A stretch of DNA of 8,328 nucleotides from a virus, in UHGV virus genome UHGV-1307394. The stretch is one strand, 5' to 3'. Numbering within the stretch: position 1 is the stretch's first letter; each line of letters opens with the position of its first letter. This document shows positions 1 to 8,328 of this stretch, one piece after another. The notes under the pieces were generated by a model. That model searched no databases and was not told the origin of the DNA. It saw only the letters and a list, made by a program, of their open reading frames with translations. A program made the translations under genes and the position numbers.

Positions 1-386
1 ACAAGAAGATACGTGACCTTACAGACCATCTGTATATCATTCACAACTTCCTGAACTGCTTTTCTGTTGCTAGGCGTATCACAAAGACAGTTGCTGTTGT
101 CCATGCGGATAAGTCTGCTAGTGGTGAATCAAAGATAGTGGATGATTACAACATTGATTCCCTGCTCCTGGCCCCTTTCGGTTCCGTGCGTTTTACCTAC
201 ATCCCGAAGTATGTAAAGTATTTCAATTCCTACAATCCTCCCCTGCTCCCGGAGAAGGAGTTTGAATACATGCCGTTCCCGGAACTGGTGAAACAGGGGA
301 AGCTGGGAGCGCTCCGCCGCGCGATGGCCGGCGGACGCGTACAGCTTCATGAGGTCGTGAGGAAATGGAACCGTAAGAAACGGTGA
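1..386 (+). CDS. 3' end of an ORF that enters from upstream of the window, function unknown. The reading frame runs from nt 3, giving about 127 aa before a TGA at 384-386.
   Basis: The frame is open from the window start to the TGA at 384-386. The track ORF 138-386 is its tail, entered at an internal GTG. There is no transmembrane segment and the C-terminus is basic (RKWNRKKR). It ends 2 nt before the inverted repeat at 389-422. Confidence 0.4.
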   Translation, partial: KKIRDLTDHLYIIHNFLNCFSVARRITKTVAVVHADKSASGESKIVDDYNIDSLLLAPFGSVRFTYIPKYVKYFNSYNPPLLPEKEFEYMPFPELVKQGKLGALRRAMAGGRVQLHEVVRKWNRKKR

Positions 387-479: not shown

Positions 480-1400
480 ATGCTTTACTATTTTAACCCA
501 CTGATTGAGGATGGTATTTTTTATTCCTGTGATTCCCTCCGGTACTCCTTTGAACTCCCGGATATAGATACAGTTGAATCCTTCCTTTCCTTCCTCTCCC
601 ATCTTCCAGGCTGTACGCATTATCATTCTTTAAAGGATTTTGATTACCGTTACCTTTTTGTATTTGGTATCAAAGGATTATCATTTTCCATTGGACTTTG
701 TATGAATGGTATAAAGAAAGAAACAGTTTTACAGGGTTTCCTGGACTTTAACCCAAATAAGATACTTGGAGAGATTGTTTATGATGATGGGTTCATGCGT
801 ACAAGCGTATCCCCCTTCGACCAGGAAGAAGTGGAGTTCAGGGACCTGAGAAGCCAGATAGGGGAAGTCCTAAAAACAGTCCTAAACGAACTGTTCCCCA
901 TAGTAGAAACAATAAAGATAAAAAGATGGGATTTAGCAGTGGACGTGCCATATGGCCGTGACTGTGTACAGCTTATCAAGGACAATAGAAAATACAGCCA
1001 GTTTTACAAATCAGCACAGGACTTTACAGAATACTTAGGATGTATGTCCGCTCCCGGCCGGGTTAAGGTCTACAACAAACAGATAGAGGCTGGCCTTGAT
1101 TATCCCCTCACCCGGATAGAGGTTACGCTGGATAGCCTGGACTACATAGATTGCTGTCGGTGCTGGCCCAATGTCTATACTCGTAAAGTGATAGATTTGG
1201 CTGAATCAAAGGTCATGGTACAGCTTCTTGCGGAACAGCCGGTAGACCGGATGGACTATTACCTCCGTCAGCTTTCCCGGCCTACAAAGTTAAAGTATAA
1301 GGCTCTGCTCCTGGACCGTCCCTTTGAGATTGAGGGTCCCATATTTAACAAGTTGCGCAATCAGTTATTAAGATATCAGGAGGGAAATTTTTATGAATAA
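480..1400 (+). CDS. rep: Rolling-circle replication initiation protein of the Rep_trans type (as in pT181 RepC and CTXphi RstA), 306 aa.
   Basis: There is an AGGAGG site 6-8 nt upstream of the ATG at 480. The motif GRVKVYNKQIE has a candidate catalytic Tyr198 (codon 1071-1073), which resembles the RIYNK active-site motif of Rep_trans initiators. Additional (K)RWDLAVD and TRIEVTLD motifs are present. Its position at the head of the + strand gene array of a filamentous-phage-like genome is consistent. Confidence 0.7.
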   Translation: MLYYFNPLIEDGIFYSCDSLRYSFELPDIDTVESFLSFLSHLPGCTHYHSLKDFDYRYLFVFGIKGLSFSIGLCMNGIKKETVLQGFLDFNPNKILGEIVYDDGFMRTSVSPFDQEEVEFRDLRSQIGEVLKTVLNELFPIVETIKIKRWDLAVDVPYGRDCVQLIKDNRKYSQFYKSAQDFTEYLGCMSAPGRVKVYNKQIEAGLDYPLTRIEVTLDSLDYIDCCRCWPNVYTRKVIDLAESKVMVQLLAEQPVDRMDYYLRQLSRPTKLKYKALLLDRPFEIEGPIFNKLRNQLLRYQEGNFYE

Positions 1401-1572
1401 GCCAGTTGGAAAAATCAAAGTCAATGTTTATCTGACCACGAAACAGTATGACCGCCTTTGCAGGTACATGGAGTTCTGTGAATGCTACTCCACCCCGGCT
1501 GAAATGGCAACAAGGCTTGTTCAGGTCGGCCTGGCCGAGGCAATCAAGCGTGGGGCGATTGAGGAGGATTAA
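1393..1572 (+). CDS. Small ribbon-helix-helix-like DNA-binding protein of 59 aa. It is not in the ORF track because it is under 60 aa.
   Basis: The ATG at 1393 lies 8 nt after AGGAGGG (1379-1385) and overlaps the rep stop by 8 nt. The product is MNKPVGKIKVNVYLTTKQYDRLCRYMEF...TPAEMATRLVQVGLAEAIKRG, which fits a beta strand followed by two helices (RHH pattern). The stop is a TAA at 1570-1572. Confidence 0.4.
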   Translation: MNKPVGKIKVNVYLTTKQYDRLCRYMEFCECYSTPAEMATRLVQVGLAEAIKRGAIEED

Positions 1573-1576
1573 TCTT

Positions 1577-1762
1577 ATGAGTGAAGATGGTTCTTTATTT
1601 TGTAGTTTTGTTGTTGTTTTTCTTCCGCATCTTTTTATGCAATTTAATAACCGCTTCTGGGTAAAGCGGTTTCATGGTAAAAAGTTAGGTGATGATTATT
1701 TATATATTTCCTATCTTGCTTATATTGTTTTTATATTTTGCTATTCTTTTCTTTTCCATTAA
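1577..1762 (+). CDS. Hypothetical small hydrophobic protein of 62 aa, lying in the 1448-1762 frame from its internal ATG. Whether it is really coding is doubtful.
   Basis: GAGGAGG (1561-1567) sits 9 nt before the ATG at 1577. The product has two hydrophobic segments. However, the region is extremely T-rich and contains a stable hairpin (1649-1671), so it may instead be non-coding (packaging signal or minus-strand origin). Confidence 0.2.
   Translation: MSEDGSLFCSFVVVFLPHLFMQFNNRFWVKRFHGKKLGDDYLYISYLAYIVFIFCYSFLFH
1649..1671. other. Hairpin AACCGCTT-(7 nt)-AAGCGGTT inside the T-rich region.
   Basis: An 8-bp perfect stem was read from the sequence. It lies in the low-complexity T-rich region between the replication module and the convergent terminator, so it is a candidate packaging signal or minus-strand-origin hairpin. 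Confidence 0.3.
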
Positions 1763-1779
1763 CTGTTTATTTATTTCAT

Positions 1780-1798
1780 CCCCGGCATAGAGCCGGGG
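1780..1798. terminator. GC-rich hairpin CCCCGGC-ATAGA-GCCGGGG between convergent transcription units. It is the likely terminator for the + strand rep operon and possibly bidirectional.
   Basis: A 7-bp GC stem is followed on the + strand by ATTTTACTGTT. The hairpin sits 10 nt from the stop of the minus-strand gene that ends at 1808. Confidence 0.5.
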
Positions 1799-1807
1799 AT
1801 TTTACTG

Positions 1808-2053
1808 TTATAGTGCTTTTGGCAATATGCCTTTTGCTTCCAGGACTTCCACCAGTGTGTCTATGTCTTGTCTGGTTTCGTTGGTTCCTTTCTTCACCTG
1901 GTATTCCAGGTTGGTTAGTCTTATGTCTATTTCTTCCAATTTGTTTTTTATAGCCTTGTTTTGTACTTTTAGAGTTTCTACACTATCATGAATTGGTTTA
2001 AGTTCTTCTTGTAGCATTCCTCTAATAGCTTCTAGCATTTCATTTTCATTCAT
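1808..2053 (-). CDS. Small coiled-coil protein of 81 aa, the last gene of the AT-rich minus-strand cassette.
   Basis: AAGGAGG lies 7 nt upstream of the ATG on the minus strand. The start overlaps the stop of the upstream gene (ATGAATGA, an 8-nt overlap), which suggests translational coupling. Heptad-like charged and hydrophobic periodicity is visible (LEEIDIRLTNLEYQV...). No transmembrane segment. Confidence 0.55.
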   Translation of the reverse strand: MNENEMLEAIRGMLQEELKPIHDSVETLKVQNKAIKNKLEEIDIRLTNLEYQVKKGTNETRQDIDTLVEVLEAKGILPKAL

Positions 2054-2693
2054 ATGGGTTATCCTCCTTAAAATCCTTTAAAATCGCTTCTCGTCCATCC
2101 TGGTGTGTTGTGGATGGCTGTTTGTCTTTTTCATCTTCTTTAATTTGATTTATTTCATAATTTGGTATAGATATCGCAAGTTCATTTATGATTCTTTTTG
2201 TTACATATTCTGGTTTATTAGGTTTATCTGTATAAAAATTAATAAGTTTTATATCGGCTTGTTTGACAATTTCTTTTACTTTCATGTCTCTTTCTCGCCG
2301 TTTGTATTGTTGATGTGATATATCATTTAATTCAATTAAAAGTAGAATATTATAATTTTTATCAAATATACCAAAATCAATATTTCGATATAATTCATTT
2401 TGATATTTAAATTCACCTGTTTTTTGTATAATTGTAGCTAAATTTACTTGGGGTATGATAATTAAATCATATTTTTTAAGTTCATGTAACGCTGATAGGA
2501 ATTTTTTTTCTGTACAGGTAAGAAAGTTCTTTTTTTTATATTGATTTTTATTAATATTATTATTTTTTTCTGTGTTTTCTTCTGTCTTTTTAAATGTCTG
2601 TGTCGTTTGTACTGTTGATTTTCTTTTTTGATTGATTGCTTTAATTATCATAAAAATTATAAGTACAATTATTACTATGGATATTTCATTCAT
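2046..2693 (-). CDS. Membrane-anchored protein of 215 aa: an N-terminal transmembrane helix, a K/N-rich linker, and a DUF2726/DUF559-like restriction-endonuclease-fold domain.
   Basis: AAAGGA lies 5 nt before the ATG. Residues 5-19 (ISIVIIVLIIFMIIK) are hydrophobic and are followed by a basic linker. Residues about 57-172 carry the pattern L-T-x-x-E-K-x-F...IPQV-L...R-N-IDF-G-I-F-D...LLLIELND-ISH...RERD...ADIKLINF. This matches my recollection of the DUF2726 (PF10881) and DUF559 signature (DF...IE.D...H...RD). GC content here is about 20-25 percent, against about 45-50 percent for the phage backbone. Confidence 0.6.
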   Translation of the reverse strand: MNEISIVIIVLIIFMIIKAINQKRKSTVQTTQTFKKTEENTEKNNNINKNQYKKKNFLTCTEKKFLSALHELKKYDLIIIPQVNLATIIQKTGEFKYQNELYRNIDFGIFDKNYNILLLIELNDISHQQYKRRERDMKVKEIVKQADIKLINFYTDKPNKPEYVTKRIINELAISIPNYEINQIKEDEKDKQPSTTHQDGREAILKDFKEDNPYE

Positions 2694-2730
2694 GTTTTTC
2701 CTTTCTTTTATCTTAAAAATTATATGATGT

Positions 2731-2973
2731 TTATTTTATGCTGATATCTCCATGTATATTGTTCGCTACAATTCCTTTATTGGTTTTAACATTGATTCCA
2801 GATGTGCCTTGCATATCTTTTTCTATTAGGTCTTTTACGTATCCTGAAAAGCTTTTATAGCCTTTGCTTTTCATGTGTTCTTTAATTGTTGGTAACTCGT
2901 CCTTTTGTATGTATACTTTTTGTGGTGAATAATTATTTTCATTATATTCTTTGTTATATTTTGCATTGCTCAT
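2731..2973 (-). CDS. Ribbon-helix-helix (Arc/CopG-like) transcriptional regulator of 80 aa. The track extends it to a TTG at 3009.
   Basis: The ATG at 2973 (minus strand) lies 6 nt after GGAGGGG. The segment KVYIQKDELPTIKEHMKSKGYKSFSGYVKDLIEKD fits the strand-helix-helix pattern. The gene is immediately preceded by three palindromic operator-like sites. Confidence 0.5.
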   Translation of the reverse strand: MSNAKYNKEYNENNYSPQKVYIQKDELPTIKEHMKSKGYKSFSGYVKDLIEKDMQGTSGINVKTNKGIVANNIHGDISIK

Positions 2974-2983
2974 TTTGCCCCTC

Positions 2984-3061
2984 CATAGTACTATGTTTAA
3001 TTTCGCCAAAACATAGTACTATGTTTTGTGACATATGCCTATGGACATAGTACTATGTTTT
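2984..3061. promoter_or_regulatory. Operator array of three direct repeats of about 16 bp (ACATAGTACTATGTTTT), each with a perfect 12-bp palindromic core CATAGTACTATG, at 2984-2995, 3012-3023 and 3046-3057.
   Basis: The exact palindromes were read from the sequence. Centre-to-centre spacing is 28 bp and 34 bp. They lie in the leader or promoter region of the RHH gene and adjoin a possible + strand -35 element (TTGGTA, 3061-3066). Confidence 0.5.
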
Positions 3062-3089
3062 TGGTAAGATATTGGTGTAACGATAAATA
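3061..3089 (+). promoter_or_regulatory. Weak candidate + strand promoter for the 3181 operon (TTGGTA-17-TAAATA).
   Basis: The -35-like TTGGTA at 3061-3066 abuts operator copy 3. The -10-like TAAATA lies at 3084-3089. The match to consensus is poor. Confidence 0.15.
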
Positions 3090-3114
3090 ATAATTAAGCG
3101 CTTAGTTAGTATCT

Positions 3115-3143
3115 ATTCTACCACAAATTTAGTTAGTTCACAA
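3115..3143 (-). promoter_or_regulatory. Candidate sigma70/sigmaA-type promoter for the minus-strand cassette: -35 TTGTGA, a 17-bp spacer, and TG-n-TAGAAT as an extended -10 (read on the minus strand).
   Basis: On the minus strand the sequence is TTGTGA-actaactaaatttgtgg-TAGAAT. This corresponds to + strand coordinates 3138-3143 (-35) and 3115-3120 (-10). Confidence 0.35.
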
Positions 3144-3180
3144 GGTTCATTTAATTAGTTGATTAAGGAGGGCTTAAGGT

Positions 3181-3378
3181 ATGACGGTTTATCAGGTTAT
3201 GAATCTTTCGTTTGTTGATGACCATACGGTTATTTTAATCCGTGATGAAGCTTTTAATCTTCTCGGCGGTTTTGTCCGTATTCATCCCTTTGCAACCAAA
3301 TTTTATTCTTATGATGTGAAATCTTTTTCTTGGTGGACTGGTAACCATTTGAATATCACGGTATGTAAGGAGGTGTAA
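3181..3378 (+). CDS. Hypothetical small protein of 65 aa, first gene of the + strand morphogenesis-side operon.
   Basis: AAGGAGGG lies 8 nt upstream of the ATG. The product is beta-rich and has no recognisable motif. Confidence 0.45.
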   Translation: MTVYQVMNLSFVDDHTVILIRDEAFNLLGGFVRIHPFATKFYSYDVKSFSWWTGNHLNITVCKEV

Positions 3379-3380
3379 TC

Positions 3381-3620
3381 ATGATGGATAAAAAGCGTAT
3401 CCGTAAAACACTTAATGATGCTGTAGAACGGTATCTTCTTGGTGATGTTGATGGTGATTTCCGTTTTAACTATATTTGGATTCGTTCACAGTTGAGTTTT
3501 GCATTCAGCATTGATGCAATTACGATTGATGAGTTTGATGCTTTGTCTTCCGTTGTCCTTCACGCTTATAAAACTGACAGGAGGGGTCCAGAATGCGTAG
3601 ACTTTCCAAGGCTCTCATAG
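3381..3620 (+). CDS. Hypothetical small protein of 79 aa.
   Basis: AAGGAGG lies 7 nt upstream of the ATG at 3381. It is tightly packed after the 3181 gene (stop at 3378). Confidence 0.45.
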   Translation: MMDKKRIRKTLNDAVERYLLGDVDGDFRFNYIWIRSQLSFAFSIDAITIDEFDALSSVVLHAYKTDRRGPECVDFPRLS

Positions 3621-3793
3621 AGCAGGAACAAAATGAAACCAGTGTGGCGATATGCCGGGCCATGGCCTTGCATGACCAGTGCCGTGTGGATGTTCTTCAA
3701 TATCATTTCGCCCGCCTGGAACATATTTTGGCTTACCTGGATGAAAAGACAGATTCCATCCCGTCCATATCCAGTGAGGTCCAGACAACATAG
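3593..3793 (+). CDS. Hypothetical small helical protein of 66 aa.
   Basis: CAGGAGGGG lies 6 nt upstream of the ATG at 3593. It overlaps the end of the preceding gene by 28 nt in a different frame. Confidence 0.4.
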   Translation: MRRLSKALIEQEQNETSVAICRAMALHDQCRVDVLQYHFARLEHILAYLDEKTDSIPSISSEVQTT

Positions 3794-3800
3794 CTTGTTC

Positions 3801-3832
3801 TCCGGGGTATCCTTTTCCGGCTCTGCCCCGGA
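3801..3832. other. GC-rich inverted repeat TCCGGGG-(18 nt)-CCCCGGA, a weak hairpin or attenuator.
   Basis: A 7-bp stem with a long loop lies between the 3593 gene and the ssDNA-binding-protein gene. Confidence 0.25.
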
Positions 3833-3879
3833 TTACATATAACAATCACTTAGTTAGTTGAGAAAGAGAGGTTTTGATT

Positions 3880-4140
3880 ATGGTATATGAGATTTTAGGC
3901 ATTGAGAGATTCGAGGGTATCTCTAAAAAGACTGGTAAGCCTTATGACTTCACCCGTTTCTATGCAGTTCCATCCAGACAGCCCGATAAAGTCCGTGGCC
4001 GCCGTGTGGAACAGGTTGACGTCTGGAACGGTGAATATGCCCCGGATATTTCTGGTATCCATCCGGATGATTTTGTGGATATTTCCTATGGCCGTGGTGG
4101 CTATGTTGAAGAATGCCGGTTGGTTGATTCTCCAAACTAG
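3880..4140 (+). CDS. Gene V-like ssDNA-binding protein (inovirus pV-like OB fold), 86 aa from the ATG at 3880. The track starts it at a TTG at 3874.
   Basis: The GAGAGG site is followed 9 nt later by the ATG. Its size, beta-rich character and motifs (MVYEI N-terminus, GKPY, EYAPD, and a C-terminal CRLV) resemble M13 gVp (MIKVEI...GKPY...AYAPG...RLRLV) as I recall it. Confidence 0.5.
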   Translation: MVYEILGIERFEGISKKTGKPYDFTRFYAVPSRQPDKVRGRRVEQVDVWNGEYAPDISGIHPDDFVDISYGRGGYVEECRLVDSPN

Positions 4141-4553: not shown

Positions 4554-4590
4554 TAACTATTCGGGATAAGTCTAGTTTAACGAATAGTTA
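4554..4590. promoter_or_regulatory. 10-bp inverted repeat TAACTATTCG-(17 nt)-CGAATAGTTA upstream of the 398-aa gene. It is a candidate operator or promoter element.
   Basis: Perfect complementarity was read from the sequence. Its half-site AACTA/TAGTT matches the TTAGTTAGTT motif family seen upstream of other operons. A TATATAA -10-like sequence lies at 4604-4610. Confidence 0.3.
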
Positions 4591-7767: not shown

Positions 7768-7929
7768 ATGATTGATTTATTCAACCTTTTTATAGATGTG
7801 ATTCTGTTCCCCATGTCCCCGGATGCCTTTACCCTTGATACGAATATTATGTGGCAGTTCATGCTTTTAATCCTTCTTCCGGTGGGTCTTATCCGCATTG
7901 TGAAACAGCTTGTTAAGGGGGTGTTTTAA
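7768..7929 (+). CDS. Pf3-type small coat-like protein of 53 aa with no signal peptide. It is not in the ORF track.
   Basis: GAGGTGA lies 5 nt before the ATG at 7768. The product has an acidic N-terminus (MIDLFNLFIDV...DAFTLD), a hydrophobic helix (MWQFMLLILLPVGLI) and a basic C-terminus (RIVKQLVKGVF). Its stop TAA overlaps the ATG of the next gene. Confidence 0.45.
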   Translation: MIDLFNLFIDVILFPMSPDAFTLDTNIMWQFMLLILLPVGLIRIVKQLVKGVF

Positions 7930-8328
7930 TGTATGCGTTTTCTGTTCTACTCTTTGGCTTTGGTATGTTTTGGATTGTCTTTTTTGCTTATCATTTCTTT
8001 AAGTATCGCAATCCATATAAGCTCTTTATGGTCTTTGGCAAGAAAGGTAGTGGCAAGACTACGCTCATGTGTAAGATGGCACTTAAATACCGTAAGAAGG
8101 GGTGGCACGTCTATAGCAACGTGCATATACCTGGAACTTATCACTTCGATACCGTTGATATTGGTGTTGCCCATTTTCCTGAAAATTCTATCCTGCTTAT
8201 AGATGAGGTAGGTCTTGTATGGGATAACCGTAATTTCAAATCCTTCCCGGAACACGTGAAGGTTTATTTCAAGTATCAACGGCAGTATAAACATATCGTG
8301 TATCTGTTCTCACAGTCCTTTGATGTTG
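7929..8328 (+). CDS. zot: Zot/pI-type filamentous-phage assembly ATPase, N-terminal 133 aa. It is truncated at the 3' end by the window and is absent from the ORF track.
   Basis: AAGGGGG lies 7 nt before the ATG at 7929 (a TAATG overlap). Walker A is FGKKGSGKTT (nt 8037-8060). Walker B is ILLIDEVG. The segment LLIDEVGLVWDNRNF...YLFSQSFDV parallels M13 pI (LLVLDECGTWFNTRSW...IFLVQDLSIVD). Confidence 0.8.
   Translation, partial: MYAFSVLLFGFGMFWIVFFAYHFFKYRNPYKLFMVFGKKGSGKTTLMCKMALKYRKKGWHVYSNVHIPGTYHFDTVDIGVAHFPENSILLIDEVGLVWDNRNFKSFPEHVKVYFKYQRQYKHIVYLFSQSFDV

Follow-up and report, generated by a model that had tools for sequence, protein, structure and literature searches.

A hypervariable reverse-strand block in a filamentous phage of Enterocloster: a putative immunity region with an optional gene for a membrane-anchored DUF2726 nuclease-fold protein

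It was only in 2023 that gut Lachnospiraceae were shown to produce filamentous phages (inoviruses) in vitro and in mice, and the regulation of these phages has yet to be studied. The genome considered here, UHGV-1307394, is a complete circular filamentous-phage genome of 8,328 bp (the window, that is, the whole stretch of DNA analysed), in which all the long open reading frames (ORFs) lie on the plus strand except those of one AT-rich block (1799-3145). Read leftward, this block contains the genes of an 80-aa repressor, of a 215-aa protein with a DUF2726 nuclease fold, and of an 81-aa coiled-coil protein (Table 1). The interpretation preferred here, whose probability is placed slightly above even, is that the block constitutes a core, recombinationally hypervariable, leftward lysogeny/immunity operon with a single accessory nuclease gene, possibly devoted to exclusion or defence at the membrane. 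The original prediction on this DNA had taken the three genes for one inserted cassette. Its observation of the sequence was largely correct, including the minus-strand ORFs (1808-2053, 2046-2693 and 2731-3009) and the plus-strand orientation of the long backbone ORFs, while its interpretation was half right (a swapped immunity module plus a nuclease moron). Even if the nuclease should have no part in exclusion or defence, the result corrects the view of the entire block as foreign cargo. What is new is a variant of the heteroimmunity regions and accessory hotspots of filamentous prophages that includes an uncharacterised, broadly distributed anchored nuclease.

The distinction between core and optional genes comes from a census of relatives collected through the Rep protein, a choice that is unbiased with respect to the module; 26 of them have a readable module. 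The coiled-coil gene is present in all 26 and a detectable regulator in 25, on the minus strand and between the terminator hairpin and the promoter region, with alleles whose identity ranges from 35 to 100% for the coiled-coil protein and from 31 to 100% for the repressor. The DUF2726 gene, on the other hand, is carried by seven relatives (L004, L037, L040, L042, L044, L047, and L048). In the sibling type represented by L015 and L048, a 113-aa HTH_3 protein replaces the repressor, while DUF2726 (84% identity) and the window's coiled-coil allele (95-100%) are both kept. Altogether, DUF2726 co-occurs with three types of regulator, HTH_3 among them, and with three coiled-coil alleles that are 35-50% identical to each other, and the window's own coiled-coil allele is also found without DUF2726 in L052 and L055. 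Because of this census, the repressor and coiled-coil genes are regarded as core, hypervariable genes of the lineage and not as foreign cargo, and DUF2726 as an independent optional gene, a single-gene module that combines freely with different regulators and coiled-coil alleles.

A self-contained foreign cassette whose three genes act as one system, either toxin/antitoxin or multi-gene defence, would explain why the genes are adjacent, on the same strand and all AT-rich, why the DUF2726 ORF shares 8 nt with the coiled-coil ORF, and why the gene order resembles that of the omega-epsilon-zeta operons headed by an Omega-type repressor. It is nevertheless considered improbable to a high degree, since 19 of the 26 relatives have the coiled-coil gene but lack DUF2726, DUF2726 pairs with several coiled-coil alleles and regulator types, no coiled-coil gene neighbours DUF2726 in other mobile elements or in chromosomes, and the ORF overlap results from read-through of a spacer and is absent in L015. 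The same pairings, or the lack of any partner elsewhere, dispose of the coiled-coil protein as a dedicated companion of the nuclease. When the backbone was sought without the supposed cassette, phages lacking DUF2726 were indeed found, but all of the readable relatives keep the coiled-coil gene and all but one a detectable regulator.

The origin of the overlap becomes apparent when the insertion point is considered. Carriers and non-carriers are separated by a segment of about 620 bp, seen as a blastn gap at 2113-2732. In phages without DUF2726, the stop codon of the repressor gene is followed by the spacer ACGCACCAGAATGAACGAGAAGCGATTTTAAAG...AAGGAGGA and then by the ATG of the coiled-coil gene. 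The end of the DUF2726 ORF (THQDGREAILKDFKEDNPYE) is homologous to this spacer, and in L015 a stop codon ends the ORF sooner, still within the spacer, so that the overlap is missing. The 8-nt overlap that had been read as translational coupling does exist, but as a consequence of the DUF2726 ORF continuing through the former intergenic spacer. Between the gene and the repressor stop codon there are only 37 bp. The gene lacks a terminator of its own, and a TATAAT in the spacer is not accompanied by a convincing -35.

The deviation in composition had been overstated in the original prediction. The block is AT-rich, with 28.1% GC against 43.6% in the remainder of the genome, while the claimed range of 20-25% is reached only by the DUF2726 insert (22.6%, and 15% at third codon positions, GC3), which falls about 8 standard deviations below backbone windows of 648 bp (44.2 ± 2.5%). 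The coiled-coil and repressor genes have 35.8% and 29.2% GC, respectively, and the backbone averages 44%, not the 45-50% proposed for it. The AT-rich variable zone (~1573-3380) takes in two plus-strand genes as well, namely the 61-aa transmembrane (TM) ORF and orf65. The description of the nuclease gene as non-canonical, dispensable cargo has held: the deviant GC and the patchy presence (7/26) are accompanied by the secretion of virions from phages that do not have the gene (E. bolteae BAA-613 and WAL-7855; PMC10061712), features expected of a moron. Syntenic chromosomal DUF2726 homologs reside in genomes of 24-28% GC, and this matching composition favours a probable acquisition from a low-GC Firmicute.

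Table 1. Features of the 8,328-bp window discussed in the text, and operators of the repressor alleles. Coordinates refer to the window.
Feature	Position	Strand	Remarks
Coiled-coil protein, 81 aa	1808..2053	-	Conserved N- and C-termini, hypervariable centre; found throughout the lineage
Membrane-anchored DUF2726 (Vsr/DUF559-like PD-(D/E)XK) nuclease-fold protein, 215 aa	2046..2693	-	Optional accessory gene
N-terminal TM helix of the DUF2726 protein, residues 3-27	2613..2687	-	K/R after helix; predicted N-out/C-in
Nuclease domain of the DUF2726 protein, residues 59-172	2178..2519	-	pLDDT above 95
Last ~20 codons of the DUF2726 ORF	2046..2106	-	Homologous to the non-coding repressor/coiled-coil spacer; disordered in model
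Segment separating carriers from non-carriers, ~620 bp	2107..2730		22.6% GC; between repressor stop codon and conserved spacer
Repressor, 80 aa, reported as Omega-like ribbon-helix-helix	2731..2973 (ORF 2731-3009)	-	Likely start ATG 2973 behind a GGAGGGG ribosome-binding site
Operator array O1-O3, three perfect palindromes	2984-2995, 3012-3023, 3046-3057		0.29 matches expected by chance
Predicted rightward promoter TGGACA-17-TAAGAT	3042..3070	+	Extended -10 TG (TGnTAAGAT, 3065-3070); -10 conserved in relatives
Predicted leftward promoter TTGTGA-17-TAGAAT	3115..3143	-	TG-extended; conserved in relatives
Backbone repeats TTAGTTAGT (at 3102 and 3129) and TTAATTAGT (at 3151)	3102..3159		In all alleles
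Operator, window allele			CATAGTACTATG
Operator, L005 allele			ATCTTGTGCAAGAT
Operator, L003 allele			CTATTGTGCATGAT
Operator, L008 allele			ACTTTGTCACAAGTG
Operator, L035 allele			TATAGGCCTA-like
Operator, L050 allele			TTTAGGCCTAAA
Operator, L057 allele			ACATGTGCGCATGT
GC-rich hairpin ATCCCCGGCATAGAGCCGGGGAT	1778..1800		Between the convergent operons; T-tail on plus strand only
Hydrophobic TM ORF, 61 aa	1577..1762	+	Last gene of the rightward operon; 28% GC; 40% aa identity to sibling-phage gene 10 (PMC10061712 Table S5)
orf65	3181..3378	+	First gene of the rightward operon; optional/hypervariable
Zot/pI-like assembly ATPase ORF, Walker A GKKGSGKT	7929..8328 joined to 1..386	+	In-frame across the window ends

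The regulatory part of the block is organised around a repressor and its operators. Seven or more repressor alleles have been found, each with its own palindromic operator triplet at equivalent positions upstream of the start codon (Table 1). The palindromic array that the original prediction took for operators is present in the window, where the three perfect copies of CATAGTACTATG far exceed the chance expectation; O1 abuts the ribosome-binding site (RBS) of the repressor gene and O3 is situated in the -35/spacer region of the predicted rightward promoter. The N-terminal third of the repressor (the first ~30 residues) is allele-specific and its C-terminal half nearly invariant, and it is the N-terminal segment that the operator cores track: KVY-type repressors go with TAG..CTA and LNIQV-type ones with TTGTGCA. 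If the protein is a ribbon-helix-helix (RHH) repressor, the variable 30 residues would include its DNA-reading strand. The RHH label itself is used because of a published HHpred match to Omega (98.5% probability; PMC10061712 Table S5) and of the co-variation with the operators. As a separate observation, the tail formed by residues 65-80 (2731-2778, minus strand; NKGIVA.NIHGDI..K) does not vary among the alleles; it extends past a canonical RHH domain, is disordered in the model, and may serve as a conserved motif for interactions.

The two predicted promoters converge, with about 30 bp between them and with transcription predicted to start near 3078 (plus strand) and 3108 (minus strand). The stretch 3063-3145, which contains the extended -10 of the rightward promoter and the leftward motif, is nearly identical across repressor alleles. 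The minus-strand motif TTGTGA-17-TAGAAT that had been proposed as the promoter of the block is present (3143-3115), but the window has no excess of promoter-like sites over shuffled sequence (9, with 10.2 expected), and for this reason the support for both promoters lies in their conservation in relatives. Three direct repeats of the TTAGTTAGT type (3102-3110, 3129-3137, and 3151-3159), about 22-27 bp apart, overlap the predicted leftward promoter. They could be the binding site of a conserved factor, for example an invariant 59-aa RHH-like protein encoded elsewhere in the genome, or part of the origin. At the opposite end of the block, the GC-rich hairpin expected where the convergent operons meet does occur, and its stem is conserved in L005 and L015 with a changed loop; the position of the T-tail falls short of demonstrating a bidirectional terminator.

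In the switch proposed from these features, the small repressor would bind its three cognate palindromic operators, as the comparison of alleles supports. The operators overlap the -35/spacer of the predicted rightward promoter and would lie in the 5' leader of the repressor gene, such that a leftward transcript would have to cross all three before reaching the repressor RBS. Binding is thus expected to shut off the plus-strand operon of about 7 kb, which would run from orf65 through the ssDNA-binding (single-stranded DNA-binding), coat, Zot, and Rep genes to the hairpin at 1778, and at the same time to autoregulate the repressor. The coiled-coil gene closes the leftward operon in every relative, and the nuclease gene, if co-transcribed with that of the repressor, would be expressed in lysogens. 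Exchange of repressor and operator alleles between near-identical phages would then produce heteroimmunity, as in the rstR/ig-2 region of CTXphi. L004 is 100% identical to the window over ~1400-4000 (2.6 kb) and 83-99% identical elsewhere, meaning that the module lies in a recently exchanged 2.6-kb block. This recombination involved the regulatory block as a unit, which begins where the rep operon ends and reaches as far as the RstB-like gene.

The comparison with CTXphi rstR, already made in the original prediction for the repressor and operator array, is close in several respects (PMC7326730, PMC12715192). In both cases, a small repressor is encoded opposite to the replication and morphogenesis genes and adjoins intergenic operators and the main promoter, and in both the repressor and its operators vary together as alleles in otherwise near-identical filamentous phages. 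However, RstR is an Xre-type helix-turn-helix protein, whereas here the regulator is mostly the reported Omega-like RHH protein of ~80 aa with three palindromic operators, HTH_3 being confined to the L015/L048 type. Moreover, the operon described here also has the conserved coiled-coil gene and the optional DUF2726 gene, its host is Gram-positive (Lachnospiraceae), and its immunity function is predicted. With Omega of pSM19035 (PDB 1irq, 2bnw; MetJ/Arc RHH superfamily), the repressor shares a small size, a variable or disordered N-terminus, and short-repeat arrays at promoters, and it would share the strand-helix-helix arrangement that is predicted for it. It differs in that its operators are palindromes of 12-14 bp about 24-34 bp apart, while those of Omega are contiguous heptads, and in the invariant 16-residue C-terminal tail, which has no counterpart in Omega. 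The outcome is a map of the genetic switch, with seven repressor alleles, their predicted cognate operators, and a conserved promoter pair, which would explain which phages co-infect or exclude each other and which offers orthogonal repressor-operator pairs for the genetics of Clostridia.

The optional gene encodes a membrane-anchored protein of the DUF2726/DUF559-type nuclease fold, as had been foreseen. It matches Pfam DUF2726 (PF10881) over residues 55-168 with 43.8 bits against a cut-off of 24.7 (E 2.6e-11) and phrog_14167 with an E of 5e-16, and its fold is alpha/beta, restriction-endonuclease-like, of the Vsr/DUF559 type. The AlphaFold2 (AF2) model, with a predicted local distance difference test score (pLDDT) of 84.5, consists of a helix (3-27), a disordered linker (28-58), a compact domain (59-172), and a floppy tail. 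Residues D106, E121, N123, D124, and H127 are invariant among 61 aligned homologs. The nuclease domain has a dN/dS of 0.04-0.12 among inovirus alleles (dS up to ~0.4), while the anchor and linker diverge freely. The putative nuclease domain has kept its catalytic residues and evolves under strong purifying selection. The family amounts to some 1,441 clusters at 50% identity, mostly of 150-260 aa; an N-terminal hydrophobic helix is present in 92 of 112 full-length homologs, 87 of the 92 having more K/R after it than before, and most of the others have a short amphipathic helix at the start. This distribution of charges argues against an extracellular orientation like that of EndA/NucA. No PDB sequence was matched by the protein in a phmmer search, NCBIfam gave nothing meaningful for it or for the coiled-coil protein, and the literature searched contains no function and no biochemical data for any DUF2726 protein.

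The gene might conceivably be a neutral or decaying passenger, brought in by illegitimate recombination and without any current function for the phage. Its extreme composition and patchy presence would fit this idea, as would a frameshifted copy in L044 (5879-6320, truncated to a fragment of 80 aa). Very little probability is given to it, in view of the low dN/dS, the invariance of the catalytic residues, and the retention of the gene with three regulator types; the L044 contig has a coverage of only ~2.4x, and its frameshifts may be assembly errors.

For the nuclease, a function in exclusion or defence against DNA entering at the membrane is, by analogy, a reasonable candidate, though one given somewhat less than even probability. 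The nuclease, tethered to the inner face of the membrane, would attack incoming DNA, whether of a superinfecting filamentous or other phage, conjugative or transforming, and the nucleoid would be spared by its distance from the anchor. This logic has been demonstrated for SNIPE, an unrelated nuclease bound to the membrane that cuts phage DNA as it is injected (bioRxiv 10.1101/2025.11.03.685801). In both proteins, one TM helix anchors the N-terminus, which faces outward, and the nuclease is on the cytoplasmic side (a prediction in the present case, from helix 3-27 and the K/R residues that follow). As in the SNIPE family, a conserved nuclease domain is joined to a highly variable N-terminal membrane-targeting region, and variants without a TM segment exist. 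They are not homologous: SNIPE combines DUF4041 and GIY-YIG in more than 400 aa, while the window protein, of 215 aa, has a Vsr-like PD-(D/E)XK fold, only DUF2726 in Pfam, and no middle domain for binding DNA or tape-measure protein. The structurally related Vsr/DUF559/I-Bth0305I proteins (PDB 1cw0, 3hrl, 3r3p; PMC3424549) are also different, Vsr being a soluble mismatch-specific repair nickase and I-Bth0305I a homing endonuclease, whereas the DUF2726 family dealt with here is membrane-anchored. If the nuclease does serve exclusion or defence, it would extend the principle that membrane location can replace sequence recognition in telling foreign from self DNA.

DUF2726 genes are found in a wide range of other elements. 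Seven Vibrio inoviruses carry one; every one of the seven database hits places it immediately behind the secretin gene, next to a variable accessory locus. These proteins have 213-222 aa (L079 1554-2222, phage Vaf1; L080 8314-8955, L083, and L084, V. cyclitrophicus inoviruses), and in PE001 the neighbouring variable locus includes a gene annotated PD-T7-4, while the other phages have different cargo there. The gene has also been detected in 208 plasmids, of which 177 are conjugative. In the two IncF plasmids examined (L081 4869-5435 and L082 4827-5393), a 188-aa DUF2726 gene stands directly upstream of traX at the end of the F-type transfer operon, and no function is reported for it. An N-terminal TM helix is present in both translated Vibrio proteins (Vaf1 and PE001) and in the translated IncF protein (L081). 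Other contexts include a DUF2726 gene after an HTH_3 regulator and divergent from a Rep_1/SSB element, the same HTH_3-DUF2726 pair in another type of inovirus, a gene directly after a prophage integrase, and homologs at the edges of tailed prophages in Firmicutes. The anchored Vsr-like nuclease thus recurs at prophage edges, in F-type transfer operons, and in filamentous phages whose hosts may be either Gram-negative or Gram-positive.

Accessory hotspots of inoviruses (pHVRs) located beside a regulator are enriched in defence genes (PMC11630473; see also PMC12715192). The block resembles them in being a variable locus flanked by a regulator in a small filamentous prophage, with genes gained and lost between close relatives, and DUF2726 genes adjoin such loci in the Vibrio inoviruses. 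It departs from them in that the optional gene is inside the repressor operon of a Gram-positive inovirus and in that its cargo is one uncharacterised anchored nuclease and no recognised defence system. A broader proposal, which is only tentative and rather doubtful at present, is that short membrane-anchored DUF2726 proteins form an unrecognised, widespread family of minimal "gatekeeper" nucleases that would sit on the inner face of the membrane and degrade DNA on entry, recruited repeatedly as single-gene exclusion devices by elements that travel as ssDNA (Vibrio and Enterocloster inoviruses, IncF tra operons). If this were true, it would represent a second, independently evolved case of SNIPE-like discrimination of self and non-self by location.

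The same distribution could have another explanation, namely that the anchored nuclease serves the element's own cycle by processing phage or plasmid DNA at the membrane as it enters, as it is extruded, or as ssDNA and the replicative form are interconverted. Recurrence in elements that move ssDNA across membranes could be accounted for in this way, and the positions after the Vibrio secretin gene and upstream of traX, together with the strong purifying selection, are consistent with it. This alternative is judged unlikely, although it has to be taken seriously: DUF2726 is absent from 19 of the 26 phages of the Enterocloster lineage, phages without it secrete virions, the gene belongs to the repressor operon and not to the replication/assembly operon, and homologs are also present at tailed-prophage edges and in chromosomes.

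Several points weigh against an immunity operon with an exclusion nuclease. The RHH assignment of the repressor is not reproduced by HMMER, hhalign, or Foldseek. No Pfam match was obtained for the window protein or in a scan of 10 alleles, nor an HTH_3 match for the window's repressor; a hidden Markov model (HMM) profile of the repressor against PDB, and hhalign, HMMER, and BLASTP comparisons with Omega (sequence verified as 1irq), detected no similarity; and NCBIfam gave weak RHH matches only (E 0.01-0.06). The AF2 monomer is poor (pLDDT 59.5), with helices at 30-36 and 42-55 after an extended segment, and Foldseek found nothing with this low-confidence model. Both promoters are consensus predictions of a kind that occurs at chance frequency, and co-transcription and expression in lysogens are inferred. 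The difference between carriers and non-carriers fits either gain or precise loss of DUF2726. The function of the nuclease is likewise inferred, and no PADLOC model matches it: in PADLOC-DB v2, the DUF2726 protein had no match and the repressor and coiled-coil proteins had only coiled-coil matches at chance level. In addition, an anchored nuclease would sit at the site where the phage extrudes its own ssDNA, and self-DNA would have to be spared there. Finally, several homologs are lone chromosomal genes in housekeeping synteny, which means that the family is not exclusively one of mobile elements or defence.

With regard to these chromosomal genes, L021 (6001-6504) and L030 (6001-6525) share a synteny that comprises a Zip transporter, an XerD-like recombinase, and MgsA/RarA, and in some low-GC Firmicutes the DUF2726 gene looks resident rather than mobile. 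In two further prophage or chromosomal loci (L028 6690-10454 and L033 4600-5529), the neighbours of DUF2726 are SPFH/Band_7 membrane-scaffold genes; this may be a coincidence or a membrane-associated functional link.

The coiled-coil protein is less easily assigned a role. Its homologs are confined to this group of inoviruses (19 hits), it has no signal peptide or TM segment, and all its Pfam matches are below threshold. A function in counteracting the nuclease, whether as an antitoxin or as an inhibitor (compare epsilon/zeta and NucA/Nin), is excluded by the census. It has also been listed as a virion structural protein ("P22 gp26 tail needle", PMC10061712), an assignment that was rejected given the position of the gene in the repressor operon, the lack of a signal peptide or TM segment, and the sub-threshold Pfam matches; the "tail needle" label most likely reflects a generic coiled-coil match. 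As pure speculation, the protein could be an analogue of the Xer-activating factor XafT, an idea prompted by the palindromic attachment site and the absence of an integrase gene (see below) and not by any homology.

The identity of the element as a filamentous phage, also part of the original prediction, is confirmed by the Zot/pI ORF and by the circular genome, which is seen to be opened inside this ORF because the latter wraps both window ends. A weak RstB-like ssDNA-binding match in a profile search is also consistent with an inovirus. The phage is an Enterocloster inovirus, a mosaic sibling of the Enterocloster clostridioformis 2_1_49FAA phage, and belongs to the group described by Burckhardt et al. 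(PMC10061712). The locus is not undescribed, as had been thought possible: Table S5 of that work covers the locus under genes 17-20, and the three proteins of the block appear there verbatim. They are numbered 17, 18, and 19, are described as "unique to E. clostridioformis 2_1_49FAA," and bear the labels structural protein, "DUF2726, unknown," and "Omega repressor," respectively, and without functional analysis. L004 carries the Rep protein of E. clostridioformis 2_1_49FAA and matches the published phage of strain 455. Nine IMG/VR contigs and about 30 contigs from human-gut metagenomes share 92-98% identity with the backbone, and a fragment is present in Clostridium porci. A megablast of the whole window against INPHARED phages gave no match, and an Rfam scan of the window found no RNA family.

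Among the neighbouring plus-strand genes, orf65 has no family match; it is absent from L005-type phages and is represented by alleles 42-49% identical in L044, L050, L052, L057, and L065, irrespective of DUF2726. A second small RHH-like gene, of 59 aa (1393-1572, plus strand), overlaps the end of rep. It is conserved at 98-100% in close relatives and at 83-90% in more distant ones, unlike the repressor of the minus strand with its hypervariable sequence.

The window does not encode an integrase gene. The attachment site, AACTATTCGNGATAAGTCTAGTTTAACGAATAGTT (4555-4590), with inverted arms AACTATTCG/CGAATAGTT, is also found in L001 (~5750 and 13436), L015, L016, L035, L037, and others. In L001, L015, and L016, each end of the prophage carries a copy of it, the host flanks vary by locus, and no tRNA was found at the L001 prophage junction. 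A tyrosine recombinase of 350 aa is encoded near the phage in L015 and L035, and it is possible that a host Xer-type recombinase carries out integration. In L036 (459-6500), a second, unrelated inovirus-like gene set (Rep_trans, Zot, and a coat GP8-like gene) adjoins the Enterocloster phage, as does a divergent pIII-like match in L001 (4698-5540), which suggests tandem arrays of different filamentous prophages at one site.

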